The translations under genes were made by a program, and so were the position numbers. DNA of 60,484 bases, counting the filler, from Basidiobolus ranarum (lineage: Eukaryota), in the NCBI GenBank assembly GCA_040143965.1. It is 13 parts of 13 records of this genome, joined end to end, with 100 filler letters (N's around TTAATTAATTAA, not from the genome) between each part and the next. Parts side by side here need not be neighbours in the genome. Positions count along the whole stretch, not along the records: positions 32,677 to 37,234 come from JASJQH010001916.1; 12 more parts are not named here. One strand, given 5' to 3'. The first letter of the stretch is position 1, and every line of letters starts with the position of its first letter. The notes beneath the pieces were generated by a model. That model was given only the letters and a program-made list of their open reading frames with translations, did no database searches and had not been told where the DNA came from. Positions 918 through 55,939 of the stretch are shown piece after piece.

Positions 918-2245
918 CTACACCGATTGTTGAACAGTGTGTGCGGGGGGCGATTGTCGACGAATTCCTTTCAAGATTTGTTGACGAAGTAGGGGCGTAT
1001 CTATAGGTTTCAATAGCTCGAAGCTACATAACAAATCATCGTTAACATTCATTACTGCTCCATAGTTATCAAATTCACCACAGTAATTGGGTGCGGAAAA
1101 GACTGTCACTAGAGTGCGGCCGTTGAAAAACTCGTATCCATCCTCAACAACCATGTGTGCACGACAAACGAGATCGAGGTCATGGGTCACTAGAAACTCA
1201 TCCACAATGGCTTTACCAAAACAATAGGAGACCCCTCTCTCACTGTCCTCCCATTCAGTAACCGTCTCACTAGGGTCACTCCAAAGAAGGTCATTGAGTA
1301 AGCCATAGTCGGGAACATCAGATGGGCGCTCAATCCTACGGATATCGTCCATATGATTAAGGTGTGGAGATAATCCACCATGAACACAGAAGATTTTGCC
1401 AGCGACTAGGGCGGCAATTGGCAAAGTATCAAAAACATTAACGAAGGTCTTCCAGATCTTAATATTACATCTTCTTTTACATTCGTCGTAGAAACCGTAA
1501 ACTACCGTAGGAAAAAAGCGTACCTTAGTACAACAGACGCAAGAATACACTTACTGATGGAAACAAACAAAATACCTCTGGTAACATTGGCGCACTCGTG
1601 GTTTCCCCTCAATAGGAAGAAATTCTCTGGGTATTTGATTTTGTAACATAGCAAAAGCAAGATGGTCTCCAGACTTTGACGTCCACGATCAACATAATCT
1701 CCCAAGAAAAGGAAATTGGCGGATGGTGGAAATCCGCACATATCGAATAGCCGAATCAGATCCATAAATTGTCCATGGATATCTCCAGCAATCTTCACTG
1801 GCGGTGATAATTCAACAAGCGATGGCTGTGATAAAAATACCTCTCGAGCTGCCTCACAAATTGCGATAATCTCGGAGTTCTTCAGGCATGGCGCTTTGGT
1901 AACCTTTCCAGAGTATCCTGCCTCAAGTAAACGCTGAATCATATCATCAATGTTTATGGATCTTGACTTATCAGCACTCATACGTCCAGATACCGAAATA
2001 ACCGAAGATATGGTTGGTGCAGCAATGGCATCCACCCCCAGATCACCAGCATTTTGGCTACCTCCGGGTCGCATCAAAATCGAATCAAGGTTATCTACAC
2101 CTTGCCCTTTCTCAACATGTTTGGCTCCCGTATCACTATTATTAGTTAGACTGTCGATAAATGGGAAAGAGCCTCTTCGTGTTTTCACCACTGGTACTTC
2201 ACTTTCAGAAGCATTTTTGGATTTTTTGGACGGATTATTTCCCAT
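918..2245 (-). CDS. PPZ1: Ser/Thr protein phosphatase PP-Z (PP1-related); join(918..1501,1576..2245), 417 aa
   Basis: [34 protein letters not shown] and [12 protein letters not shown] motifs. A 74-nt GT-AG intron (1502-1575) restores [17 protein letters not shown]-terminal [10 protein letters not shown] resembles the myristoylation signal of Ppz proteins. Confidence 0.92.
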
Positions 2246-4574
2246 GGTTTTCAACGTGAGAACGAAGTAGGAAATCTGTGTTCATAATTCTTTCTACGTT
2301 AGTGATGATAAAAGGAAGTTCCTTCTTTTAAAGTATTCTTATCTGATAGAGCGAATAAGAAACTTTTAAAACTAACAACGCTAAAACCCAAAGGTGACAT
2401 AGAGAATACACAACTTACTTGGCTATATGATATGCTCTTGCTTCGAACAGTAAGCCAGAATGCTATCTTAGTGGAGGTAAGAAACACACACAGTCACTAC
2501 TGGAAGGTTGTTATACAGTTGGTGTGCAAGACAGAGAGAGTATCAGTAATGGCGGCAAAGTGTAGCTACTTATGAGGTTGTTAGAGAAGAATGTCGTAAG
2601 AGAAAGAAGGGAATGTACAGATGGGCGTAAATAGACTAAAGAAATATACCTAGGGGAGAAAGGGTACACTAACAGGAGAAGGGGGAGGTAGAAATCCCAG
2701 TTATTATTAAAATCCAGTAATGAAATCAAAATCTATGAACGCATATGAATACATCACGAAATAAAATTCCCTATTAGCGTTGCCCAAACAAAGTTTGGTG
2801 ATTATTCCAGTTCTGAGTGACTACTAAAACCTAAGCTAGATATTAGAATGAATCAACACTAACCCTATAAGCTTGAATTAGCACAATCAAGGCTACCAAC
2901 AGAGCTAGTACTTAATGTAGCACAAAATGCCTTTATTCATCCCAGCACAATTCAACAATGGCAGAGGATGGAGATGGCAACTCCGTCCTATTATGCTAAT
3001 ACCGTCTCCATGCCTTTGGATTTTCACAGTGCTCGCTCATCTGCGCTGACGCTTACCAACACATGCTTCGCCATGAAGAGATCCCATTATTTCCGTGTGC
3101 CGAGTTCCTACTGGTTCCTGATGGATTACGCTTGTCTCTGTCTTAAAGTCATTAACAAATGAAAGCTGGCGACATCATCTGATCCTCTCTGTTTATTGTG
3201 CTGGTCACCTCACTCTCCTAGTAGAGATGCTTCTTAGCAGTGCTGAACGATTGGAGCCGCTGATGTACCTGGTCACGTGGATGATGATCAGAGAGGCCAC
3301 TTGGATTTTCGCAGAGACGAACCTACCCTAGGCTGGTGAGTGAGGCCTGTGGACAACGGTGTGTGAGATATGTTACGGAGTGCATGCCAACCAATGATTC
3401 ACTTATCAAAAACTTGACCAGTGAGTATCCAACACCCTAAACCCAGAACACCCTAGTTCTGGCAGTGTTTTCACAACTGATGCTACGATGAAATCAAATC
3501 AACAATCGAAGCAGCCTTGATGTGGGTTGTGGGCATTCATGTACTTGTGCATGTCTAATCATAATATGTATCTCTGGCAAGGGAATCAACTGCTGTGCGA
3601 TGGGAATAAATGAAATAAACACGATCAGCAACCTACCGTCCAGACTAATCCAGCTATGTTGATGTTGATTGATTGCTTAATTCGCCAGTCAACCTCGAGT
3701 CGTGAAACATCTTTATTTAACAGGCGCTGTGGTCTGATTCACCTTTGTATTACCGGCAACATCAGGTAAAGATCAAGTGAGAATGAGATTTGTGTGCAGC
3801 AATGATTAATGGTGTGCACACTGAGAACTACCTGTCTTCACATAACGTATGCTCTCTGTGTTGTCAGCAAGACAAGTGGCTCTCTGTTGGCTGCAAATAA
3901 GGCGTCAACTCTACGTCTCGTATCCACCTGCAAGTACTTCTCTGGCCATTTCTAGGCCAAACGTTTCGATAGTTTGATTCTCAAACAGTGGCTCCTCATA
4001 TCAAATGAAACCACAGAGCCGCATGTGCTAATCAACATTGACATGCTGTGCTACTGATCACTTATCCTTCAGTAGGCCCAACACACGGGAAAGCATTGAG
4101 TTGAGGTGTTGCAAAGCTACCTATACTTGGATGATAATACCAAAGATGATACTGAGTATTACGCCGCAGGAATCCCTCACGCATGGGTCACTACCAAGAC
4201 ATCTTGATGTTGTGATATCGCAGCTGCAATGGATCTATCCCATAGCTACATGGTGTTGAAGATATGAGGACAATGTCTCGTAGCTGATCCTTGATTTATC
4301 TAATACTAAAATGTTTCTGTGACTCCATAATGTCTATATTAGCCCCTTACCATGCTGAGCGCAATGCTGCATTTATCCAAAAGAAGTCGATCAGCTTTCG
4401 CAGTTCAAGTATAGATCTAGTTAAACATGTGAGGATACATCGATATTTTAAGGACAGCTCAATCTATACAGCCTATATGGTATAGTAAAAACTCTTTAAT
4501 GGGCTAATGTCGCCGATAGTATGGATGAACTCAAATTAATTGGTGCCACTGATATCATGGTTTTCAATATCAAT

Positions 4575-4674
4575 NNNNNNNNNNNNNNNNNNNNNNNNNN
4601 NNNNNNNNNNNNNNNNNNTTAATTAATTAANNNNNNNNNNNNNNNNNNNNNNNNNNNNNNNNNNNNNNNNNNNN
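4575..4674. other. Artificial contig linker (N44-TTAATTAATTAA-N44); 12 copies in the window
   Basis: Identical 100-nt spacers with stops in all six frames at 4575, 9247, 13919, 18586, 23251, 27915, 32577, 37235, 41889, 46542, 51193 and 55840. The segments between them never increase in length. Confidence 0.97.
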
Positions 4675-6287
4675 CTGGTGGAACACTTCCAATGATGATG
4701 TATATGCTTATGCAGCATTCTGTGACAAGCAACACACTCTAGATCAAGCTCTGGCATGTCCTGAATCAGAATTATGGGGAAAGCAATGTCTGAAGAGAAT
4801 TCTTCAATTCAGGACAATAAAATATGGGCTTTAAGTCCTCTACCATCAGGGAGAAAGCCAATAAGTTGCAAATGGGTCTACAAAGTCAAAAACCAAGCTG
4901 ATGCAACCACACAAAGGTACAAAGCAAGATTAGTTGCTAAATGTTATTCCCAGACACAGGAGTTGGTTTTAATAAAATGTTTGCTTCAATAGCCAAGTTT
5001 AGCTCCTTTAGATCAATCCTGGCCCTCTCAGCTGTCCATAACCTCAATTTACATCAAATGGATGTAAAACAGCCTTTCTGAATGGAAATCTAGAAGAGAT
5101 CTATATGGAGCAACCAGATGGATTTGTTGACCCAAAACACCTTAATATGGTCTGTAAACTACAATAATTGCTATATGGACTCAAGCAAGCACTCAGGGCA
5201 TGGTATGACAAGATAGATACCTATTTGGAATCATTAGGATTCCAAAAATGCATAGCAAAAAGCAGTATTTACATTAAAACCATTGGAAATAGGCTCCTTA
5301 TCTTCGCCCCATATGTTGATAGCTTGTTCACAGCCACAAATGATCTACAAGCCTATAATCAGACAAAAGCAGCTTATCTGACTGATACGAGTGAATTAAG
5401 TAATTTTCTTGGAATCCAGATCAAGAAAGATAACCTCAATTGGAATACCATGCTGAATCAATTGAGACACATCCTACATAACCAAAAATGCTTCAACATG
5501 GAGAATAGCAAGCCTGTATTAATGCCAATGGATCCCACTGTGAAAATAATCAAAATTTTATACAAATTGGCTCAAAATGACTCATATCAAAGCCAGGATT
5601 TCCTTGTCAAAGCATAGTGGGTAGTTCAACATACACAATGGTTGAAACACATCATGACATTGCTGTGGCAGTGGAACTATCAGCCAATATCTCAAAAATC
5701 CAGGATCTGAGTACAAAACTGCAGTAAAACAATATTCAGGTATTTGAGAGGAGCTGTAGGTCTAGTTCTGGCTTACTCAGCCACTCCTTATGCACAAAAA
5801 TTTGAAGGCTACCATGATGCAGACTGGAGAAGAAACCTTGATGATAGAAGATCAACAACTGGGTACACTTTTCTCTATGGTAATGGAGCCATAACTTGGA
5901 GTAGTAAGAAGCAACCAACCATGGCACTTTCCACTACAGAAGCAGAGTATATGGCTGCCTCTACTACCACAAAAGATGCTATTTGATTAAGGAAGTTATT
6001 TACAGACTTAGGATACATGAAAGACATGCTATCACTATATTTCAAGATAATAAAAGTTGTATTTCATTTGCTAAAAACCCAATATTTCATGCTGGAACCA
6101 AACATATAGATATTAGGCATCATTTTGTTAAAGAAGCAATTAAGAATGATATACTTGAACTGGTCTATTGCCCTACTAAAGAAAGAATTGCTGACATTTC
6201 AACCAAACCTTTAGCTAAAGCACAATTTGAATAATCAAAATATAAGTTAGGTTTAAGAGAAAAACAAAATAATTAGTTCAGTGGGAA
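4675..6287 (+). mobile_element. Degenerate Ty1/copia pol (RT + RNase H)
   Basis: CKWVYKVK..RYKARLVAK, LYGLKQA.RAWY, DADW..RRSTTGY, ALSTTEAEYMA and TKHIDIRHHF motifs with frameshifts; polypurine tract AGTGGGAA just before the LTR. Confidence 0.93.
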
Positions 6288-9246: not shown

Positions 9247-10313
9247 NNNNNNNNNNNNNNNNNNNNNNNNNNNNNNNNNNNNNNNNNNNNTTAATTAATT
9301 AANNNNNNNNNNNNNNNNNNNNNNNNNNNNNNNNNNNNNNNNNNNNAAAAGCCACACAAACACCACAAGCACCGTCAGTAGCATCACACTACAAGGATGT
9401 TCATAACTAGTCAAAGTGCTTGAGGAGTATTTTCAAAAGTAAGAAGGGAAAAACACACTGCAAATATGTAGAAAGTGGCTTCAGAAGAAGAACATTCAAC
9501 TTGACATTCAGTCTGGTGTTGACTGTGCAGATATCTGGGAAGAACTTAATACAGAGTGGCACAATTTTGCAGGGTATCTGCCACATAGCTGGAAGAATGT
9601 TGATTCAGCAACATTAATACAATGGTGGGCTTCAATGGAGATGTTGACACAAACTAATGTTGGGTATGAGCTAAACCTTGGGTATGAAGAACTCTATAAA
9701 AATATTCAGGAGAATATATTGAAGAGACTAGGGATTTCAAAGGTGACAAATTAGCGTTCAAGTGGTAATTGCGTAAAATTCGAGTTACGTTTTTTGCACA
9801 TGTGTTATGTAATTAACCGGCAGGTGGGATGTGGCTAACTTGATGCACCTAATGTTTGATGGAGTCTGCTATATGTACTTTCCTGGGGCTGGAAATAATC
9901 CGGTTGAAATCCTACAGTGGATTGGATCCAATCATCGCACTTGACAGTCGAGAACCCGCAAAGAGAACAAATCTAGTGAATGACCACTCGCAATAAGTTT
10001 GATACTCACGGTAGTTATTAAGTTACTGTGGTAACCATATTGAATAATCGATGCTTCCATATCATCATATATATTAATTTTGCCTACCTAATAAGGCTAT
10101 GTCCGATGGCTGACTGGTCTATTGGTCACCAAGTGTTCTACTACCCATTGGATAGTCAGATGATCTGGTCGGTCGAGTTCCCTTTCCTATCCACCAGCTA
10201 TATAAGGTTCAGCAGAGTTCCCATTTCATCCTAAATTCTGTTTTACTTCACGATCCACTCTGTGCGTCCTGATATCGCGTAAAATCGCCTCTATTCACCT
10301 CTTGCTTGTTCTA

Positions 10314-10889
10314 ATGACTTGTGCTGTTACTACTTCGGTTCTATCCGACTCTTGGGCTCCTTTGGCAGACAACTTGATCGGTATGTACATAAACTTAGAC
10401 TAGCCTAAAATCGAAGCAGCGATTTATCCAATTGATTTATTCATAGGTTTCACTACTCAATCGGTCGACTCGTTACTAAACTGCCCTACATCTTCAGCTG
10501 ATGGAGCTCAGTCGCTTCCTTCACTCTACCAGTTTATCCAAGATACTACCACTGTTGCCAGGATATCCCCAGAGATTCTAGTTGCTAGTTTGGTTTATAT
10601 CGAGCGCTTTAAGGAGTCTTTGCCCGTTGGGTCCAAAGGGGAATACGGAGCTTGCCACCGGATCTTTTTGGCTGGGATTCTGATTGCGAGCAAATTCTTG
10701 GACGATAAGCCTCTAACCACTGCGAAACTTGTACAGGTGATGGGTAATCGATGGAGTTCGAAAGAGATTAATCGGATGGAGCGAGCATTTTTGAATTTCC
10801 TCCAATTCCGGCTCTGGGTAGACTCAGAAGAGATATATACTTATATCGCCAAAAATGGGATTGAGCTCGACTTATCAGCGTCGATTTAA
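10314..10889 (+). CDS. Pho85-type (PCL1/2-like) cyclin; join(10314..10380,10447..10889), 169 aa
   Basis: A GTATGT...CATAG intron gives a continuous frame LPSLYQFI...ASLVYIERFK..LP...CHRIFLA.ILIASKFLDD...EINRMERAFL.FL.FRL, typical of the PCL cyclin box. Confidence 0.85.
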
Positions 10890-15425: not shown

Positions 15426-16508
<1,083 letters not shown>

Positions 16509-23967: not shown

Positions 23968-26900
23968 ATGTCTCGCTTCAATCCTGATGATATGCCAGCT
24001 TCTAGCAAAGCTAACATCTTTCAACCAAAGGCAAAAAACCAACCTCAAGGACAGGTAATGACTGAATAAATTAGATTGAATTTGTTAATCTTCAACAACA
24101 CAAGTATTTAACCAATTTTAAACAGCTTGCTGCTTTGCTTCGTGGAAAATTCGATCTTGAGTACGATCCTTTCACTGGTCAAGCTAGTGATATTAATCGC
24201 TCTAGTAGCGCTCCACCCACTCAATTGCTTGATCGGTTAGGAAGATTCAACGTAAGTATTTCATCTAGTGAGTTTTCTTTAGAACAAAAACTGACTCTCA
24301 ATTTAGCCTAACCAGGAAGGCGAATATGCTTCTAGCAACTCTCGTTTAGATCCGGAGCAACAATCTCAGTACTACAACCAACCTCGTCCTGATGCTAGAT
24401 TACCTCCTGGTTACGGATCCAACAATCAATCCTGGCAAATGTGGGCAGGTGCTGGAATCGATACCTTGGGAAATAATTCTAACGGACCTTCATCTCAAAA
24501 AGAGAAAGAGTTGGAGCGCTTCAAGGGCTTTGGTAAGGTTCTTTTGTTTCTTTTATTTGCTCCTTTTATTGACTTTTTTATGATAGGTGGAGAAGACTTT
24601 TCTAACACTCATCACCTTGATCAGAGTTTGGAACCTGAGCAAGGTAGAGGTATGAGAATGAATGAAGCCAAAAATGACCCTTGGGGATCGAATGAAGTAC
24701 AACAAATCTATGGTGGTGGAAACAACATGGATGCTGCTTCTAGACGCAGAAACTTGGTCGATCTCATTCAAGATGTAATTCCTACCTTTACCTTTGGGAT
24801 ATTGCCTTCAATCTAATTCTTAACCTCCATTATATAGGATTTCCCTCGTACTCCTTCCCCCGTGATTGCTCTTCAGCAACGTCAGGCTGCCGGCTCATTT
24901 GATGGTGGTCGTGGTGGTGACGAAGGCGATCTTAACTCAGGCTTACTTCCAGATAACGATTACGATCGCCTCCGCCTTAGATCAGTTGTGAATGCTGCAT
25001 TAGATGGAATGGAGGATGAACGCTACGCTCCTCATTCTGGCGCTCCTCCTATGCGTGGTGCTAGAGGACCTATGCCTCAAAGAGCCAACTCTACCCCACC
25101 AACTCAACAATTCCAGCGTCCACCAAAATCCAATAATGATCTCAACGACGTTAATGGTAATTTGATGATGGACATGCGTGGTATGAGTCTCAACGACAAC
25201 GATTATGAGGCAATCCAACATGCTCGTCTTTTGCAACAAGCCAAACTTCAATCTCAAGGATATAATTCCTATATGAGTGATCTTGGTGCCACTTCTGGTT
25301 CCATGTACTCCGGTTATGGTGCTGAAGCATACGGTTGGGATCGAGAGGAGCGTTTGGCAGGTAACGATCTCTATAGCCGTGCTGAAGCTTTGGGTATTAG
25401 CCCACTAGAGTATCGACAGGCTCTTCAACAACTCCAACAGCAAGGACTTTCTGTGGCTCGTGCGGAACAAGTGCTTGCTACTGAGCTTGGTGCCATGAAA
25501 CGTAATCAACTTTATGGAACTGGTGGAAATGGAATCAACAGTAACACTTACCTGAATACTTCTACCGCTGGTGCCTCTAATTTTACCGGTCCAACCTTGC
25601 ACAGGTCTCATTCGTCTTACTCTCTAAACGAAAGGAAACTTCGCAACCAATTACTTTTGCAACAACAGCAACTCAACCAGCAACAGATGCTATTACGCGA
25701 GCAACTTCTTCGACAACATCATGGTCATGAACTCGCTAGTAACATTGCACCTTATGGGGCCCCCACTGGTCAAGGAAGACGTTCGATGACTCCCGACTTG
25801 AATATGTCATCTATTGGAGTTGACCCTAACCACGGTATGAGAAGCCCACTTTTGGAAGAGTTCCGTAATAACAAAAATAAGAAGTATGAGTTGCGAGATA
25901 TTGTTGGCAGTATGGTAGAGTTCAGCGGAGACCAACATGGTTCTCGCTTTATTCAACAAAAACTTGAGACTGCTAATAGTGAGGAGAAGCAACTTGTCTT
26001 CGACGAGATCCTTCCCAACGCTCTGCAACTTATGACTGATGTATTCGGAAATTACGTGATCCAAAAGTTCTTTGAGCATGGTAATCAAGTCCAAAAAACC
26101 ATCTTGGCCAAGCAAATGGAGACTCACGTTTTGTCATTATCTCTTCAAATGTATGGTTGTCGTGTGGTCCAAAAGGCTCTCGAACATGTCTTGACTGAGC
26201 AACAGGCAGTTTTGGTGAAGGAGTTGGATGGTAATGTCTTGAAATGTGTCAAAGACCAAAACGGTAATCATGTGATCCAAAAGGCCATTGAACGTGTGCC
26301 GGCTGAACACATTCAATTCATCATCAATGCTTTCCATGGCCAGGTTTACAATCTCGCCACCCATCCATATGGCTGTCGCGTTATCCAACGTATGTTTGAA
26401 CACTGCACTGATGATCAGACCAAGCCTCTGCTCGACGAACTCCATCGCTATACTCAAAATCTTGTCCAAGACCAGTACGGTAACTATGTTATTCAGCACG
26501 TACTCGAACGAGGTAAACCAGCCGATAGATCTCTAGTCGTCAACAAAGTTCGTGGACAAGTTCTACAAATGAGCAAGCACAAGTTTGCTAGTAACGTCGT
26601 CGAGAAATGTATTGCTCATGGCAGTAAGCGGGACAGACAAACACTCATCGATGAGGTGATCCAGACCAAACCTGACGGTACCTCTGCCTTGATTATCATG
26701 ATGAAGGATCAATATGCCAACTATGTTGTACAGAAGATGCTTGATGTGGTTGATGGTGACCAGAGAGAGATTCTCATCGCTAAGATCAAGCCTCATTTGC
26801 AGTCACTCAAGAAGTATACATACGGCAAGCATTTAATTTCAAGTAAGCCAACTCCAATATTCTTTTATACTGCAGTATACTAACCTTAGCCTTCATTGAA

Positions 26901-30009: not shown

Positions 30010-30817
30010 TCCAATTACAATGATTTGCTGAATCTAAGGTATCAAAAGCCTTGGAAGGCATCTGTTAAACAAGTTCTGCTACCAACAAAAAGTTTTAAGA
30101 AGAAAGTGTTTTAACTCAAAGATGAGACCAGGAGAAGACATTGAATCACTAATGATGGAGTTACTACTTTAGTGGATGAAATGGAATGCATTGGAGTACC
30201 TACTACTGATCAAGATAGCATAGTTACAGTCCTGAATACCTAGCCACATAGGTCTCAGAGCCTAGTAATTGCTCCAGAATCAAAAACTAAAAATTAGACC
30301 TTAAATTATATATTTGGCTGAATACTGAATGAAGACTTATGCAAATTGGGATCCAGGCACATGAATGAAGAAAATTCTTTAGTAGGCTATGGGAAACCTT
30401 CCTGTAAAGGTAAAAAGCCCTTCAAGAAGAAAAGTAACACACTGTGTGATCACTGTAAGAGAATTGGTTATTTAAGCTAAGATTGCTTTAAAAGAATTGC
30501 TAAAGGAAAACATACTGAATCTGGAAATGTGGTTACCACATAGGATCACTAGTTCATATCTGCTCTATCAATGAATACCAACAAAGACTCTAAGATGTGG
30601 TATATGGATCCTGCAACCTTGCAACATTTTACAAATGTAAAACAATGGTTCAAGAATTATGTACAAATCCCATTTAGAAAGGTTTTCTTGTGTGATGACC
30701 ACACATTAGATGCTATTGGAATGGAAACAATTCATGTTGATTTAACTAGAGCTTCTGAAGAGAAAGTGTATACTTTTGAAGATGTACTATATGTTCCAGA
30801 TATTGCTAAGAGCTTAA
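30010..30817 (+). mobile_element. Copia gag/protease remnant
   Basis: CDHCKRIGYL..DC zinc knuckle, WYMDPATLQHFT (DSGA-derived), DVLYVPDIAKSLI. Confidence 0.8.
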
Positions 30818-31634
30818 TATGCTGGCTAATGATTTTACTTAACCTAAATCTTCCTCTTTCTGAGCAGTATAAGAGTCGTAATATTTTGATACTATCCATC
30901 ATATCTGGACCTAAATCACCAGTGCTTATAGATATCTTCTTGGAGCCTTGGATTGTGGAAGTTGAATGGTTATTGATTGGGGTCAAGATGGGTGAATATT
31001 TTATTCAAGCTATTATCATTGTATGTATTGGTGACACTCCTGCCATTAGTAAACTTGGAGGTCTTTGCATGCACAATGCATGATCTTGCTGCAGATATTG
31101 TCAAATCAATGAAGTTGACTCTATTGGGCATATGCATTACTACTATCCAAATACAAAACTAAACTCCATGACGTTACCATTAAGAGGCTGGTCAAATTTC
31201 AATATGATCACTGATATCAATTCAACAAATAGTCAGTCTAACATCAAACTTGTTATTAGCCATAAGCCTATCATTATATTGCTAAAGGGGATCAGCTGTA
31301 GCCAGAGCTTCACATTAGGCAGTATGCACTTATTATTCAACAACATTCCAATACCACCTACACAGCTACATAGTCAAAAATTGCATCACCCCACATTGGC
31401 AGATCTCAGGCAGCTACAACAACTCTGCAAAGTTTTTGTAATTGGACATGAAAAACTTATTACAGGTTTAAAGAAGATAGACTGAATCCATGCTGGTATT
31501 CAATATATTCCCTGCTGCATCTTCCTCAATGCTTAGAGATTAAAGGCCTTTGCTATACATTATTGGAGTTCCCAATGGAGCACACCTGTGGTGAAATGAT
31601 GCTCCATGTGAAATTATCAGTATTACCCTATGCT
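30818..31634 (+). mobile_element. CACTA transposase fragment, internally deleted
   Basis: NLNLPL..YKSRNIL..ISGPK, GDTPAISKLGG, SMHLLFNN, FPMEH.CG; parallels 38300-39360. Confidence 0.8.
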
Positions 31635-32676: not shown

Positions 32677-33252
32677 GAGTATATTCACCTGCCAACAAAG
32701 GGCTCTTTTCAATGTGCTCACGGGTTTTTGCATTGTTTGAGCATAATAACAGCAACAAAGCCCAATCCATGGACACAGAGTAAGTACTGCTATAATTGGA
32801 CTAATTTTCTTGTGTGATAATATGATGGTATACTTGGGAAAGCTGCAAGACAGACTTCTTAGTGATATAGATCAAGAAACACAGTATAAACAGCCTATAA
32901 TTAACCAAAATTGCCATCCATTATCAGAAATATCTTGTAAATCCCCTGATGACTCATCTGTGACACTATCTCAGAATCAGCTGATGATATTGATGGGCTA
33001 TACCTCAAATACTACCCTTATGCAGGATGTGTTCTTTTTTCTACCATACCCATCTCATGCCACAATGCAAATGTTTAAAGAAGGCCTGCTATTTTTGTCA
33101 CAGATTCTTGCGCTATGAAAGCTGGAGGCTTCATAGAAAAAATGATCACAAGCATGTCCACTGCACAAAGCCAACACCTGCACAAAGCCTGGTCAATATC
33201 AACAATAATAAGTGCACAAAATTGACTATAGTTTTGCCCACTGAGTCCACTG
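32677..33252 (+). mobile_element. Rearranged CACTA fragments (3' piece followed by 5' piece)
   Basis: 32677-32885 is the reverse complement of about 32290-32495; 32910-33252 is the reverse complement of about 40145-40475. Confidence 0.75.
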
Positions 33253-33299
33253 ATTGTGTCATGATTCTGATCTCAGCATGCTGATCCACTGCAAATAGA

Positions 33300-35019
33300 A
33301 CTCTTATATTATTAGATTATGACATCATATCTGCTGTGCCATCCTTTCTTGGCAACCTTGTGTTAGTTCATCTAGATTACTTTATATGGAAGTCATGTTC
33401 TTTGGAACATTGCATGAAACCTAACCAATTGTGTCATCCTACACATAGTGTATTTCCACCAAGACCTTCCATGGAAGGTCTCCTGATCACCCTTGCATCA
33501 TCCTTACATCATCCCTCTTTGTATTGGTCCTTGTAGTCCCCAAGATCCCAACTCTCAAACTTGCCACAGTATAATCCCTATTCAGCATATTATGTTTCAC
33601 CTTGCAATATCTATATAAGCCCCATGTATTGCTTGATAAGACCTCAGTCTGATCAACATCAGTTATCAATAAAGATTCTTGCCAAAGTATCTTCCTTGTC
33701 CAGTCTTGTCTTGTTGTCTACACCCAAGTACTCTCCTGCCTTCTAGCCTCTTGTTATTGTTTCCAGTCCTTGTGCAGTTCCTTAATGTTACAATGTCAGA
33801 GCATATCATCTACCTTGAGGTTTGTGTTTGATTGTTATGGCTTGTTCAAGCTCAGTAAGAGCTTCACTATCTCTCTCAACCCATTGTGTTGGTCTTATGG
33901 GGGTATGCATTGTAACAGATTGCTGTCTTAGTAGATCACTCTCAGGTGTCAGATCATCATCCAAAAAAGGGGAAGGTTCAATAATTCTTAGGGTTTGCCT
34001 TTGTTGCTATGGCACAGTAGTCACATTAAACTAGTATGTCTTTCTGGTGGCATACTCCTTGGAGCTGACTCTTCTCCAGATGTAAAAAGCTCACTGGTTG
34101 GTTTGGTTGAATTAGGTAAATCGCATGCTATGATGTGTGATAATGTGGGCCATCCTCTTTCCAGTTCTTCATTGACTGCTTGCTCTTCATCAAAGATGGG
34201 AGAAACATCACCAACTCTTCCAAGCTGGCATTGCTGTTGATGTGTGCTACTAGCTGATGAGCCAGCTTGTAGGGCTCTTGCCCTTGTTGGAGGTGCTACC
34301 TCAATTTTAGTGGTGACTTGTGTAGATTCCTCTTGTGAACTAGATACCTTGTCCAGAGTCTCTTTGATTCATTGTGATCTAGTATGTCTCTGCAATGGTC
34401 TAGACTGCTCCAACTTGCCTTTGGGAATATCTTCTGATTGAATAAATTGTCTTGCTTTTCTCTTTACATCTCAGTTGATTACTCTTACCATAGTGTCCTG
34501 AAATGTTGTTTTGAACTCTGCAACCTCCATCAACAGTTGCTGCAAAGTCTCTTTGAGTAGTGGTAGATATATATTTAGAACATCTTTTGTCTCTCAAGTG
34601 GAGGCAGCAACAGTTGCTTCTGGTCCATACAAGCGTAAATGCAATTGGAATTGTGTCTTTATGGACTCAATATCAAAATTACTATTTCTCAATTCACGCT
34701 TTCTATCCTCATGAGTCTTGTTATATATTTTCTTGCAGACTTCTGAAGGCATGAAAATATAGTATTCTCTCTAAAGCAGAGTCAAAAGTTGCTTCCACTT
34801 TTGTCCAATGTACTCTTCCCCAGCTTCAGTCAAGTTTATCAATAACTCCCATTTATCTAAGCAAGAATTCATAGTGGATACCTGGCCATCTGTAAAATCA
34901 TTAGGCGTGCACTGCTTCATGCCGCCCACACCTTCATTTGACTGCATGTGAAAAATTTTGGAAGTGGTGGTTTCCTGTACCAAAGTAGGTTGTGAATCAG
35001 GAAGAATTTGTTTTGACAT
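33300..35019 (-). pseudogene. Decayed second ORF of the Harbinger-like element, with a Myb/SANT-like N-terminal region
   Basis: One frame runs from 35019 to about 34020 with few stops, mostly TGA. FTDGQV..MNSCL...QKWKQLLTLL*REY.IF.PSEVCKKIYNK...RKRE resembles a trihelix/MADF domain. It is divergent from the transposase. The left boundary is approximate. Confidence 0.5.
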
Positions 35020-35394
35020 GATACATAACTACCTTAAATATGTATTTATGATGTTAAACTCTATTGGTTTCAATTAGAAATAGGGATCTTTTTATATTAT
35101 TGGTTAATATGTCAAAGTTAATTTTATATAGTGTGATCAAGCATAATGCATTACACTTGAGCCATTTCAATACATAGGCTAAATAAATTAGTTTGGATTG
35201 AGCTATGATTAACTTTGCTGATGCAGTTTATTATATAATTTACATGCAATTACACATAATTGAAATAATTAGGATAATAAATGCAAACAGAAATTTTGTT
35301 ATACAGAATGTAAGGAATTTTACCATGATAATTGAAATTCTTAGATAAAAAACTTGCATGCTCCAGATCAATCAGTATTGTGCCAGATCAATAC

Positions 35395-36291
35395 ATGGTT
35401 AATATCATGCTCTCCATCTACTCTAAATGGTCATTCCTCCTTAATCCAAAAGCAACTACTGGCTTTCTTATCACCACCCTAGTAGCTATATTTGAGAAAT
35501 ACTGTAGCTCATTTACTCCAATACCTACCAGAAAGCAGCTAGTCAATTTGTTTTGTTACTACAAAAACTATTGTCCAATCAGATTTTGGTGCACTATTAA
35601 TTTTGGCAAAAGTGGGAGAAGCTTCCATACTAGGCTTCAAGTAAGTGAGAATTATCTAGCTTCAGTGATGAATGATGTTGAAGGTGCCTGGGACAAAAGA
35701 TTTAGAGACTCTTATTTCCTTCCACTTCATGGCATATTTCCCAATAGAGTTCATATCAGAAGTATTCTTGATACATTTCTAGCCAGAATTAACAGGCCCA
35801 AAAGCAACCAAAAGCTATTCTATTCAGGCAAGTACAAAGCCCACTTTGTAAAGTTCCAGTCTTTAACAGATTTGGAAGGAGACATCATTTGGTTCAGTAG
35901 GCCACATCCAGGGAAACACCATGACATAAGGCTTTGGGTTGAGAGGCATGCACCATTTGTAACAGATGAGCAGACTATGGCTGATTTGGCATATGTTGGG
36001 GAAGAATGCAGAAGGCTAGCATGTGTTATTGCTAACAAGACATCAAGAGGAGGGATACTAATAGAGAGGCAAAAGCTCTATAATGACATTTTTTCCCATT
36101 TTAGAGCAAGAGTAGAACATAGCTTTGGTTTCCCAAAGAGATATAGTATTGTAGCAGGAAAGTATAGAGGAAAATCATTTTGTGGGCCTCAAATAAAGTT
36201 AGGCAAAGTAGTCAAAATCTTGATTAATTCTCAATATATTCATACTCAAAGATACGCATTGAGAGCTGCAGACTTAAGACATTATGAATAA
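35395..36291 (+). CDS. IS5/ISL2-PIF/Harbinger family DDE transposase (DDE_Tnp_4), 298 aa from the first ATG
   Basis: ILDTF...FYSGKYKAHFVKFQ...PGKHHDIRLW...MADLAYVG...QKLYNDIFSHFRARVEHSFG; catalytic D/D/E residues present, no stops. Confidence 0.85.
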   Translation: MVNIMLSIYSKWSFLLNPKATTGFLITTLVAIFEKYCSSFTPIPTRKQLVNLFCYYKNYCPIRFWCTINFGKSGRSFHTRLQVSENYLASVMNDVEGAWDKRFRDSYFLPLHGIFPNRVHIRSILDTFLARINRPKSNQKLFYSGKYKAHFVKFQSLTDLEGDIIWFSRPHPGKHHDIRLWVERHAPFVTDEQTMADLAYVGEECRRLACVIANKTSRGGILIERQKLYNDIFSHFRARVEHSFGFPKRYSIVAGKYRGKSFCGPQIKLGKVVKILINSQYIHTQRYALRAADLRHYE

Positions 36292-36472
36292 AGCTTTCAT
36301 TATCTTTTGAATGTGAATAATGTCTAAAAGTACTTTTCTTAAATATACCACATAAGTAAAATAAACTGTTTCCACAATGGTAAATAACATTGTGCCAGAT
36401 AGTGCCTAATCATGCCAATTTGTGCTGGCATACTTTTTAGCTGGCCTGATCTGGCTCAATAAAATGGAACAA

Positions 36473-36796
36473 GTCTATAAGAGTAACTTCTTACCATGCT
36501 TAAAGAAGGTCAACAAGTTATACACAGAAAAGTATATTCCAAAATGGTAAGCTTAGTGTTGCAAAAATCTGTCATAGATGAAGTCTCTATGATTAGAAAA
36601 ACTACTGTACCTTGTGATGAGAACACTTTAAATATCCATATGCAAGCTATTCATCCCAGCCAGTTGGGATATGTGTGCTTGTGTGAAACCCCAGAAGGAA
36701 CAAACATTGGCATTATTAAGGATCTTGCCATGATGTGTTTGCTTTTAAATATCTCTGAAGACAAAGTTCTTGATGCACATAATTGGTTTAAAATTA
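36473..36796 (+). pseudogene. Fragment of a divergent DNA-directed RNA polymerase second-largest subunit (RPB2/RpoB fork region), possibly viral
   Basis: VSMIRK...MQAIHPSQLGYVCLCETPEGTNIGIIKDLAMM aligns with the conserved SHLRR...RxLHxSxxGxxCPxETPEGxxxGLVKNLAL motif. Confidence 0.8.
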
Positions 36797-37234
36797 TTGT
36801 TCCATTTTATTGAGCCAGATCAGGCCAGCAAAAAAGTGTGCTGGCACAAATTGGCATGTTTGGGCACTATCTGGCATAATGTCATTTACTGTTTAGGAAA
36901 CAGTTTATTTTACTTATGTGATATATTTACAAAAAGTAATTTTAGACATTGTTTCACATTCAAAATATCTTGAAAGATTTATTCATAGTGTCTTAAGTCT
37001 ACAGCTCTCAATGGATATATTTGAGTATGATTGTATTGAGAATTAATCAAGATTTTGACTTCTTTGCCTAACCTTGATTGAGGCCCACACAATGAATTTC
37101 AACTATAGTTTCCTGCTACAATGTTATATCTCTTTAGGAAACCAAAGCTATGTTCTACTCTTGCTCTAAAATGGGAAAAATGACATAATAGAGCTTTTTC
37201 CTCTCTGTGAGTATCCATCCTCTTGATGTCTTGT
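36797..37234 (-). mobile_element. Second, inverted copy of the Harbinger-like element 3' end (transposase C-terminus and terminus), cut by contig end
   Basis: Its reverse complement aligns with about 36035-36472 throughout, including TTTAGAGCAAGAGTAGAACATAGCTTTGG and terminal CTGGCCTGATCTGGCTCAATAAAATGGAACAA. Confidence 0.92.
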
Positions 37235-37334
37235 NNNNNNNNNNNNNNNNNNNNNNNNNNNNNNNNNNNNNNNNNNNNTTAATTAATTAANNNNNNNNNN
37301 NNNNNNNNNNNNNNNNNNNNNNNNNNNNNNNNNN

Positions 37335-37443: not shown

Positions 37444-40400
37444 CAGAGAGCCATCACAATATTGGTGGCTTGCATTCTGCCAGGGATCTCAATGGTGCAA
37501 TGATGGCTTCTTGATAGTAGTTTGATGATACCCATACATGTTAAAGTATTGATCCTCATATTTGGCAAGCACTATTTAATTTCCGGCAATTTTTGAATGG
37601 CAAATTACTGGGTTTACTGCTGAAGGAATTTGAACTAATATGCAAGCCTTTATTTATATATTCTAAGCTTTGTATTCTAGCCATAATGAGAATCAAAAAA
37701 AAAAAGAATCTTGTTGTGTTTAGTCTCTACACATGCATATACTTGACTAATCAGACATAACTCAACAACATCACTATGCTTTACCAGCAAACTAATGGTA
37801 CAAAAATTGCTAAACACCTGAAATTTTGAATAGCACTGACACTTGGCAAATAGCTGATACTTGTTACCATTCACAATGAGAATAGGCTCTTGGATTTTGG
37901 CAAATTTCCATAAAGAATTGAGCCAATATATCCCCAACTTGCAGTCAAAAATGTCCTGCCACTGTATAGATCTGTTGTTGCTTGAATAGAATACCCCATG
38001 GCTAAAACAATAATACTGCATATCTTGATCTACCTCACCAAGAAGTCTGTCTTGCAGCTTTTGTATAAATACCATCAGATTATTGCACAAACAAATTAGT
38101 CCAAAATATAGAGGTACTGAGGCTGTGTCCATGGATTGGGTTTTGTTGCTCTTATTGTGCTCAAAAATTGCAAAAACACATGAGCACACTGAAAAGAGCC
38201 TGTTCTTGGAAGGTTAATATACTCTGGAGTCTCCTTAACCCATTGCATTATATCCATCACTGATTTTGCTGATACATTGTTAATCAGATTATCACACAGT
38301 AATACTAACAATTTCACCCAAAGCATCATTTCACTGCAGGCGTGCTCTGTTGGGAACACCCAGAATATATAGCAAGGGCCTATAATCTCTAAGCATTGTG
38401 AAAGATGCAGCGGGAATGTATTGAATACTGGCATAGATTCAGTCTATCTTCTTTAAACTTGTAATAAAGCTTCTCATATCTAATTACAAGATCTTGGCAC
38501 AGTTGCTGTGTCTGCTTGAGATCTGCCAATGTGAGTTGATGCTGGAGGAATATATTAACAATATCCACAAACAACTCCTAATGTTGTCAATACTTATCAG
38601 GCAGAAATATTTTCAAGATTCCACTTGAATATATTCAAATCCAATACTTCCAGTCACTGCATTTGAATAAATGCCTAGATGAGTGGATATTGATGGGAGA
38701 CCTGGTAAAATATGATGGTATCTTGATGTTTTTGAGCATTTTCCCAATCAATTCAAGCTTTGATTCTATCTCAAATAGCTCATTCATATTGAATTTTCCA
38801 CTATACAGCTGAGTAAGTAGTACTGGATTGTTGTTGAATAGTAAGTGCATAGTGCCTAATGGAAAGATCTGGCTCCACCTGATCCCCTTTAGCAATATAA
38901 TCTTAGGCTTATGGCTAATACCAAGCTTGATATTAGACTGACTATTTGATGAATTGGTATCAGTGAGCATGTTATCATCTGACCAGGTTCTTGATGGAAA
39001 AATCATGGAATTTTGTTCTGTATTTGGATAGTAGTAATGTGTAAGCCTGATAGAGTAGACTCCATTGATTTGACAAAATCTACAGCAAGATAGTGCATTG
39101 TGCCCACATAAATCTCCAAGTTTACTGATGGTTGGAGTGTGACCAATACATATAATGATATTAGCTTTAATGAAATATTCACCCATCTGAACCCCATCAA
39201 ATAACTGTTCAAATTCAACAATCAAAGGCTCTAAGAAGCTATTGATAAGCACCATTGATTTAGGTCCATATATCATGGATAGTATGCAAATATTATGACT
39301 TTTAAACCATTCCAAAGGAGGAAGATTTAAGTTAATTAAAATTATTGGCCAGCAAGCCTTGCCAACAGTATATTTGTTTAGTCAGACACCATCCAGAGCT
39401 AATGCAAATGCATGATCATATGTGTTCTCAAAGAAACCTTGACTTTTCAGATTCTGGTAGTGATATCCATCAAGTATATTGTTAATACCATCAGCTTTAC
39501 AATGAGTAGTTTGGTATTGGATCAATGATCAATATTTGGGTGCTTTCATCAAAACTTTAAGACAAAAATCAATAGTAATTAAGCCAAATATGATGATATT
39601 TACCTGATTCAGTGATCACCAATTGTGTACAAACAGTACACAACTTCAGGTTTAGCAGATCACCAGTGAAAGGCAAACAACCACTTGGACATCAAGGTAG
39701 TTTAATTACTGAAGGATTATAAGTCATACAATTGACAAGTGTTTCCACTTGTACCAGGTCTGTGGCAAGCAACAGTTGCCTATCAACTGTGGTAAAAGTG
39801 TAAGAAAACCAGTAAGCACCTGGTCACTATGATTGGATTCAACTCTCCATTCCTCAATAATCAATGCTATTTCCTTTACTCTAAGTGTTATGAGTGGACT
39901 AATGCTTGCCAATAACAAAGAGTCCATAACCAAACCATTATCTTCTTCTTCAACTTCTGATAAACTACCATCAGTACTGGAATAACTAAGGTCAACATCT
40001 AGCAGCATGTCCTCAAAGTTGGCTAGACTTACTGGTTTGACCAAAGTTGCTTTTCTACCCACATCATTCTGGTCATATAACTGTGGTGACTTCACAGTAT
40101 CTTGACTTTTGGCAGTATTATCAAAACTTTGAGGCTAAGCACAGCCAGTGGACTCAGTGGGCAAAACTAAAGTTGATTTTGTGCACTTATCACTGTTGAT
40201 AATCACCTGGCCTTATGCAGCTGGTGGCTTTGTACAGTGACCAGACTTGTGATGATTTTTTCTACAAAGCCTCCAGCTTTCTTTGCACAAGAATCTGAAA
40301 CATTAATAGCAGGGCTTCTTTAAATATTTGTGTTGCAGCATGAGAAGGATATTGTAGAAAAAGAACACCTCCTACATAAAGGTGGTATCTTAGGTATCAG

Positions 40401-54337: not shown

Positions 54338-55939
54338 CTATTGAGTGGATTATTTAAGTATTTGCAAGGTTGAACTTGAAATTTCAAGTTGTCCAAATAA
54401 ACCCTAGGATAGCGTATTTTACTTTCACCGGTATTCTATGTACAGCTCTTGATCTTGTTTCAGCACTGCCTTCAAAAGTATAGATACTCTATTTGTGATG
54501 GAAGAATAGATATCTCTCGAACTCATAACTTCATTTGTTAAAACTCTGTCGGCAAACCACAAATTTTCTTAATAATATGAATAATTAAATGGATAGTATT
54601 TCACCATACTAGACTACTGGAAAGTTTCGAAAAAACACCAATACTATAAAACACCAGGTGGCTAGATATGTTGAACTTTCCGTTTACTGTGCCAGAAAGT
54701 GCTGCATATATAATATTCGATAGGGTAGTCCGAAACTGATGGGACTCAATTTGCCACCAGCTGGTTTTCTCAGGTATGATGAGTGTCAATCAGTTTGCTT
54801 CCATTAAATTTAGCTGAAATCCGATAGCCCCAGGCTTGGAGGATTACTTCAATGGAGTGTAGATATGTTGCGAAGTGATATTTCTCAATTCAGTGACTGT
54901 GTAGCAATGATTGATTTTGTGTGCAACATTGTGTTATTCTGTCAGGCACTGTCGTTTCTCACCTTATGAAGGTTCTATAATATGCTGTCATGATTGCTTA
55001 AGATCAATCAGTGTAATACAGCGGTGCATAATGTATTGGAAAATCCCAATAGCTTTGGAATGTAAATTCTTGTGTCAGTGCCTTGTCGAGCTTAAAGAAA
55101 TGCTCATCAATCTAGGGACCTAACAGGATAGTTACAGTGGAATATTCCTAGATGCGTAGCTGAGTAATCTGAAATTGATGTGACTCAGTTTGGTATTATT
55201 TTAGTGTAAATTCCAATCCATTTTCTTGTAGCATAAGGAAGCTGATCGGATAGTGGCAATCTTACAACACAAAATACCAGGACTTCGAGACATTATCAAG
55301 TCTTTCAATCCTTCAGCATACCGCCACACTCACTTTAACGTATTATCTATACAGCTAATTATATGATTCAAGTAGTTGCCTTTATTTACCAACCGTTTAG
55401 ACTAACTGTTGATCGAAAGTTAAGATGTAATATAATTGCTACTGTTGATTCCCATCTACCCAGCAATATAACTTCCGAATCAATTGAGTAATGCAAGGTC
55501 CTCTGATGCTTACAATGGACTAGTGTTGGAGGCACTGAATCCAGCCTTTGTAAACAGTGGCTGTTGTGTTACTGCTACAATCTATGTACGCAAAGGAATA
55601 CCTTGAGTTGGGGCTTATTCAAATTCTGCCACATGCTGTGCCCTTGTCCATTTCGAACCTCACGTAGTACACCGTTGTAAGCTTATTTCTAAGAAATGCC
55701 ACCATATTCCAAATATCTCTGACTGCCAATACTACCCTCAAGTGATATTAGCTATATGTTGCAACTGGGGCTATGAATAAAGCGTAATAAACACGTGTGC
55801 GCTCATCAGAATTACCTAATGCAATCTATTAAGCCTGGCNNNNNNNNNNNNNNNNNNNNNNNNNNNNNNNNNNNNNNNNNNNNTTAATTAATTAANNNNN
55901 NNNNNNNNNNNNNNNNNNNNNNNNNNNNNNNNNNNNNNN

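Follow-up and report, generated by a model that had tools for sequence, protein, structure and literature searches.

Relics of large DNA viruses and transposons of the PIF/Harbinger superfamily have both been described from the fungal genus Basidiobolus. Gong, Zhang and Han (2020, Virus Evolution; PMC7017919) reported endogenous elements resembling nucleocytoplasmic large DNA viruses (NCLDV-like elements), termed 'fundsalphavirus', in 14 fungi, among them B. meristosporus, B. heterosporus and Mortierella elongata. Genes common to these elements encode D5, a D6/D11-type SNF2 helicase, an S-adenosylmethionine (SAM) methyltransferase, RPB2, RPB5 and a split RPB1, and the relics are described as carrying stop codons and frameshifts and as having transposable elements nearby (PMC7017919). 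In the literature searched, the name 'fundsalphavirus' was found only in that paper, and no paper paired Basidiobolus with Nucleocytoviricota. Muszewska et al. (2017; PMC5751038) documented huge expansions of PIF-Harbinger transposons in Basidiobolus. In maize, MuDR is silenced by Mu killer, which consists of part of a transposase gene in inverted duplication and for which action by way of a hairpin RNA has been proposed (PMC3440606). The subject of this report is a locus of Basidiobolus ranarum (assembly GCA_040143965.1) in which two inverted ends of PIF/Harbinger elements face each other across 324 bp of RPB2-like sequence. It lies in contig 8 of a 60,484-nt stretch of DNA, here called the window, in which 13 contigs are placed end to end with 12 artificial joining spacers.

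We propose, at a probability of about 0.6, that two copies of one PIF/Harbinger family inserted separately into a decaying endogenous viral RPB2 gene. Under this proposal an NCLDV-like RPB2 gene of the 'fundsalphavirus' type would have been integrated in the Basidiobolus genome, and two Harbinger copies would have entered it in separate events, in opposite orientations and with 324 bp between them. The left copy would have kept its open transposase frame, while the right copy would have become a pseudogene, within which the assembly breaks. The structure as a whole would have arisen passively, as transposons accumulated in a viral insert that was already dead, with no need of a function of its own.

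The inverted repeat and its RPB2-like centre

An earlier note on this DNA had described two diverged arms made of a transposase C-terminus and an element terminus, arranged as an inverted repeat of at least 438 bp, and this description was borne out by three comparisons. In blastn, 36035-36472 aligned with 37234-36797 (439 columns, 89.07% identical, E 1e-163); a repeat search returned three collinear inverted pairs of 228, 157 and 67 nt, with complementarities of 90%, 89% and 87%, respectively; and a global alignment of the arms contained 46 mismatches and two single-base insertions or deletions (indels). The right arm stops exactly at the contig end, 37234, and the arm length of 438 bp is accordingly a lower bound. 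The arms lie tail to tail, i.e., with their 3' ends facing each other across the centre, and their final 33 bases, ending in ...CAATAAAATGGAACAA, are identical. The window contains the 20-nt terminus twice (0.02 occurrences expected by chance), and neither the terminus nor the RPB2 piece has a further copy in the other 12 contigs. The transposase assignment follows from the open reading frame (ORF) 35332-36291, which matches the Pfam family DDE_Tnp_4 (PF13359) at E 6.5e-17 and 62 bits against a cut-off of 24.8. A simple fold-back of the assembly, such as would result from a missed adapter, was rejected, in agreement with the earlier note, on the excess of substitutions over indels (46 vs 2) and on a centre that is not palindromic. 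Because both arms stop at the same nucleotide, with RPB2 sequence within a few bases of each, the two junctions are most simply read as transposase-made ends and not as random duplication breakpoints.

The centre matches the Pfam family RNA_pol_Rpb2_3 at E 2.9e-13 and corresponds to approximately residues 47-154 of P0001, a 450-aa B. ranarum 'hypothetical protein' with Rpb2_3 and Rpb2_6 domains, which was the one longer protein passing the threshold among 58 candidates from a search of 5.8 billion clustered proteins. The two share 77 of 102 residues (75%) over P0001 residues 52-153 without a gap. The RPB2 frame is open from 36487 to 36813, and firm homology to P0001 covers 36487-36792. The previous statement that RPB2 coding sequence runs up to both junctions thus holds to within 4 nt on the right, while on the left the firm homology stops 14 nt short. 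A frameshift near 36491-36495 is probable: in another frame the first bases of the centre read V-Y-K-S-N-F-L where P0001 has V-Y-D-E-L-F-I, a weak hint that RPB2 homology may reach the left junction through a small frameshift. P0001 itself runs on past both points of interruption, with residues 1-46 on one side and 155-450 on the other, so that the breaks are peculiar to the copy in contig 8.

The best score of the centre against solved cellular and archaeal RPB2 proteins was 32.6 bits (56 sequences at E up to 0.01); in phmmer it scored 162 bits against P0001 and 72-113 bits against other members of a clade of compact RPB2 proteins, including those encoded by the viral contigs L001 and L002. 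On these similarities the centre is closer to viral-type than to cellular RPB2, and it is not a piece of the host's own polymerase.

A profile-free exhaustive search with P0001 (E up to 0.001) gave 3865 proteins. Those nearest to P0001 are unusually short RPB2 proteins of 820-1003 aa with domains 3, 6 and 7, and the named ones among them are two more B. ranarum fragments (P0003 and P0006) and one Linnemannia elongata protein. The remaining members, including P0008-P0012, come from metagenome contigs, of which the longest measure 24-90 kb, and the next tier includes intein-bearing RPB2 proteins from metagenomes. P0001, P0003 and P0006 (450, 336 and 255 aa) are annotated as separate hypothetical proteins, yet all are pieces of a gene of about 900-1000 aa, and viral RPB2 is therefore both multi-copy and broken in B. 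ranarum. Of 194 pattern matches in IMG/VR, 176 were found to encode relatives, and many of these belong to giant-virus bins (GVMAG contigs). The two best contigs are L002 (52 kb), in which the compact RPB2 gene stands beside a split RPB1, an SNF2-type helicase and DUF5757, and L001 (35 kb), in which it stands beside D5_N/DUF5906 (D5 primase-helicase), DNA_pol_B (family B) and an SNF2-type helicase. P0004 scored 537 bits against the L002 protein and 305 bits against its best solved cellular relative. The contigs that encode RPB2 proteins of 820-1003 aa may represent extant relatives of the viruses behind the fungal 'fundsalphavirus' relics, and the compact clade ties the Basidiobolus and Linnemannia relics to viral or metagenome contigs of 24-90 kb.

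When 167 proteins were compared with the window by tblastn, all 148 hits fell in contig 8; every RPB2-type hit started in the centre, and the others were two matches of the transposase relative P0002, one to the left ORF and one to the right arm. Alignments of P0004, P0022 and P0135 extend 34-110 nt beyond the right junction, and the P0004 tail was judged spurious, as it crosses a stop codon with almost no identity. A tblastx comparison of the 13 contigs with 80 viral loci produced 91 hits at E up to 1e-4; with the limit relaxed to 1e-2, all matches lay in the centre, apart from one of 20 residues at 34468-34527, which was dismissed.

The RPB2 relic resides in a fungal host genome, given the genes for GAPDH, a phosphatase, a cyclin and a Pumilio protein on sister contigs, which we presume to belong to the same assembly, and the fungal-type transposons on contig 8 itself. 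The GAPDH ORF (360 codons, uninterrupted) is 96% identical to its B. meristosporus counterpart and has its best match outside Basidiobolus at about 85% identity, which places the host in this genus.

The transposon copies and the origin of the locus

The left transposase aligns with P0002, a Logan protein from a 1250-nt contig, over 294 of 294 residues without a gap and at 59% identity; P0002 was the sole relative to pass among 357 candidates, again from 5.8 billion clustered proteins. The right arm matches residues 229-294 of the same protein, also at 59% identity; within its 84 codons the transposase frame is disrupted twice, by a 1-nt deletion and by an in-frame stop. When P0002 serves as outgroup, the right copy accounts for 11 residue changes and the left copy for 5, with 3 ambiguous. 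The 25 mismatches in the coding part of the arms are distributed over the codon positions as 6, 10 and 9, and their density in coding sequence (25 in 254 nt) is matched in non-coding sequence (21 in 181 nt); because mismatches are thus even over codon positions and equal in the two parts, the pattern indicates neutral decay of the arms. A bias of the kind left by repeat-induced point mutation was rejected (21 transitions vs 25 transversions), and so was a special conservation of the terminal 33 bases, since a longer identical run of 44 nt lies within the coding part. No relative of the transposase was found in IMG/VR (none of 14 pattern matches confirmed) or in JGI metagenomes (none of 224 and of 203 confirmed), and the exact element terminus was likewise missing from IMG/VR. 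With one apparently intact copy and a single relative, the transposase family may be of use to annotators of Basidiobolus transposons.

The decay of the two copies is unequal, one being intact and the other broken, and for this reason two insertions at different times are favoured. We infer that they were independent, one preceding the other, and the remainder of the RPB2 gene would once have lain beyond the elements. Two insertions into an integrated viral gene had been one of the options put forward previously, with the implication of a target preference. The first part fits best, given the viral-type RPB2 and the Basidiobolus host; the second found no support, and no target preference is needed, since Harbinger elements are massively expanded and close neighbours are to be expected. 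Dead viral DNA is, moreover, a safe place for insertions to persist.

PIF/Harbinger elements produce a 3-bp target-site duplication, TWA. Such a duplication involves both ends of one element, and contig 8 shows only the inner flanks. Of these, TTA at the right copy fits TWA and GTC at the left copy does not, which is one of several points that weigh against two separate insertions. The asymmetry of 11 vs 5 residue changes is not significant alone (one-sided binomial p = 0.105), and the junctions rest on a single short contig that starts and ends in repeats. The key prediction, continuation of RPB2 beyond each element, was not confirmed: tblastn with P0001 found nothing outside the centre in the window, tblastx likewise gave no further RPB2 or viral sequence elsewhere in contig 8 or the window, and no 5' terminal repeat was present in the 3.4 kb upstream. 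The rest of RPB2, which the earlier note had suggested looking for beyond the 5' end of each element, was thus not seen upstream of the left copy within contig 8.

Unequal decay also bears on a single rearrangement, in which one insertion would have been followed by alternative transposition, for example by the 3' ends on sister chromatids reinserting 324 bp away, to give copies that were initially identical and inverted and have since diverged by about 10%. Such an event would account for two inner junctions that are both exact termini of elements of one family and for arm divergence that is neutral in coding and non-coding sequence alike, and alternative transposition that makes inverted duplications has been described for maize Ac/Ds (bioRxiv 10.1101/2020.01.07.897926). 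We nevertheless regard it as unlikely: copies made in this way would have decayed in place for equally long, and it is therefore unexpected to see 294 intact codons in the left copy and two disabling changes among 84 codons in the right. An assembly chimera, in which two loci, each with an RPB2-like relic and one Harbinger copy, were joined through similar sequence, is unlikely to about the same degree. The contig measures only 4.6 kb, has repeats at both ends and ends within the right arm, and RPB2-like relics are multi-copy in B. ranarum (P0001, P0003 and P0006), all of which would favour mis-joining, but the RPB2 frame is continuous and collinear with P0001 for 102 residues without a gap, and the fold-back form of a chimera conflicts with the substitutions and the non-palindromic centre noted above.

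A functional hairpin locus would be a possible consequence of the structure and not a rival account of its origin, and we consider it quite unlikely. The 1200-nt stretch is predicted to form a single hairpin whose stem spans about 438 bp (-676.7 kcal/mol), and the intact left ORF could drive transcription toward the centre; by analogy with Mu killer, read-through of the left gene might then yield a hairpin RNA that is diced and silences the Harbinger family. Against this, three AATAAA motifs that follow the transposase stop codon inside the element could terminate transcription before the centre is reached, and the arms show neutral decay, not conservation. The suggestion in the earlier note of double-stranded RNA carrying foreign sequence is mechanistically weak in view of the predicted fold, in which the transposon arms would pair with each other and the RPB2 loop would be single-stranded, and a 'memory of the virus' does not follow. 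Least likely of all the ideas weighed here is a Mu killer-like hairpin generator in an early-diverging fungus from which secondary small RNAs might spread into the RPB2 loop; if true, it would be a Mu killer-like locus that also targets resident or infecting fundsalphavirus.

Tn10-type composite transposons and eukaryotic macrotransposons mobilise the DNA between two copies through their outer ends. Capture of the RPB2 fragment as cargo of such a unit is very unlikely: the geometry of two inverted same-family copies around a short foreign segment fits, and no more RPB2 is seen upstream of the left copy, but the window contains no second unit or further copy of the terminus, one of the two copies is a pseudogene, the outer ends are not in view, and a capture step is needless, as RPB2 relics are already endogenous viral DNA in Basidiobolus.

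Surroundings of the locus and layout of the window

The left element may have its 5' end outside contig 8. No 5' terminal repeat was detected in 32677-36034 by local alignment of the 60-nt terminus or with its first 7-16 bases, and over the 3.4 kb upstream there was no 12-mer at up to 2 mismatches and no exact 7-mer. A match of 14 of 15 bases at 35376-35390 (chance about 0.005 by a rough estimate) was rejected as the 5' end, being an internal recurring motif. This 12-nt motif, ATTG[T/A]GCCAGAT, occurs three times in the left copy, i.e., just before the transposase start codon (35377-35388, plus strand), in the 3' tail (36388-36399, plus strand) and, inverted, in the terminal 30 nt (about 36445-36458, minus strand). 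The repeats may be putative subterminal binding sites of the transposase.

PIF/Harbinger elements carry a second ORF for a Myb/SANT-like DNA-binding protein. In a Pfam search of the upstream ORFs of at least 60 aa (16 of 16, E up to 1), no family reached its curated cut-off; the sole listing was Fn_bind (E 0.1, 12.8 bits vs a cut-off of 21.2). None of the 16 matched a Myb/SANT-like family, although introns, decay or a position off the contig could hide one.

The 13 contigs decrease strictly in length from 4574 to 4545 bp and are separated by joining spacers of 100 bases at 4575-4674, 9247-9346 and onward to 55840-55939, of the same composition as the one listed in Table 1. Because the contigs are concatenated, features that cross a joining spacer and long-range repeats between adjoining contigs are artefacts. 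A larger palindrome, 33000-33258 vs 40140-40397, was rejected on this ground, as it joins two different contigs, and the repeat is also present in contig 7. Apart from common repeats, the other contigs are unrelated to contig 8. Contig 8 starts inside repeats (its leftmost 580 bp or so) and also finishes inside them, as is expected of a fragmented assembly of a repeat-rich genome. In contig 9, pieces matching the leftmost repeat of contig 8 flank a Transposase_21 (tnp2) ORF; the occurrence of this repeat family in contigs 7-9 fits the published CMC-EnSpm expansion in Basidiobolus, and both kinds of transposon, PIF-Harbinger and CMC-EnSpm type, are thus present in the window.

Table 1. Positions of features in contig 8 and in the sister contigs of the window
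Feature	Position	Strand	Remarks
Contig 8 of 13	32677..37234	.	contains the entire structure; bounded by N44-TTAATTAATTAA-N44 joining spacers
Fragment of an unrelated repeat family	32677..33258	.	blastn matches of 82-89% to contigs 7 and 9
Region upstream of the transposase	33259..35406	.	no Pfam family, RPB2 or viral similarity or 5' terminal inverted repeat (Pfam, tblastn, tblastx and terminus searches)
Left PIF/Harbinger copy, transposase ORF	35407..36291	+	apparently intact; 294 codons, span given with the stop codon
Left arm	36035..36472	+	last 84 transposase codons, stop codon and 181-bp tail, ending in ...CAATAAAATGGAACAA
RPB2 relic (centre)	36473..36796	+	324 bp; endogenous NCLDV-like compact RPB2 gene, domain 3, fork region (Pfam, P0001 homology)
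Right arm	36797..37234	-	3' part of a second, decayed and inverted copy of the same Harbinger family; 89% identity to the left arm
Joining spacer	37235..37334	.	artificial, non-biological; 44 N + TTAATTAATTAA + 44 N
PP1-type Ser/Thr phosphatase	921-2281	-	contig 1; two overlapping ORFs (intron or frameshift)
Copia-type RVT_2 fragment	5168-5614	+	contig 2
Cyclin	within 10404-10886	+	contig 3
GAPDH ORF	15429-16508	-	contig 4; 96% identity to B. meristosporus GAPDH 2
Pumilio protein, 8 repeats	24838-26880	+	contig 6
Transposase_21 (tnp2, CACTA/EnSpm-type) ORF	30553-31080	+	contig 7
Transposase_21 (tnp2, CACTA/EnSpm-type) ORF	38638-39381	-	contig 9

Comparison with known systems

On its own the locus is of little significance, being another dead giant-virus-like gene broken up by transposons, and both of its components, viral relics and the Harbinger expansion, were already published for Basidiobolus. 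The closest described counterpart of the centre is the set of fundsalphavirus elements, with which it shares the host genus, an RPB2 gene of the kind common among them, and the state of a decayed relic beside transposable elements (PMC7017919). The viral contigs L001 and L002, with D5, a D6/D11-type SNF2 helicase, a split RPB1 and PolB, show the fundsalphavirus gene set, and the centre would accordingly be RPB2 of the fundsalphavirus type, a link made through host genera and gene set and not through the published sequences. Contig 8 differs in keeping only a 324-bp internal piece, without a neighbouring viral gene, and in that its relic lies between DNA transposons, whereas the fundsalphavirus paper mentions retrotransposons (PMC7017919).

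The transposon copies resemble PIF/Harbinger elements in their DDE_Tnp_4 transposase, in a defined terminus common to both copies and in their residence in a genome rich in this superfamily (PMC5751038); they differ in that neither a Myb-like ORF nor a 5' terminal inverted repeat was found in contig 8, nor could a target-site duplication be made out there. As to the arrangement of the arms, counterparts are Mu killer and the inverted duplications that arise by alternative transposition of Ac/Ds and trigger silencing by small interfering RNAs: in each case part of a transposase gene, with the terminal repeat, is duplicated in inverted orientation, and its transcript would form a long hairpin. 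Mu killer was recognised by genetics and gives rise to small interfering RNAs, whereas the arms in contig 8, known from their sequence, differ from each other by 10.5% and are decaying neutrally.

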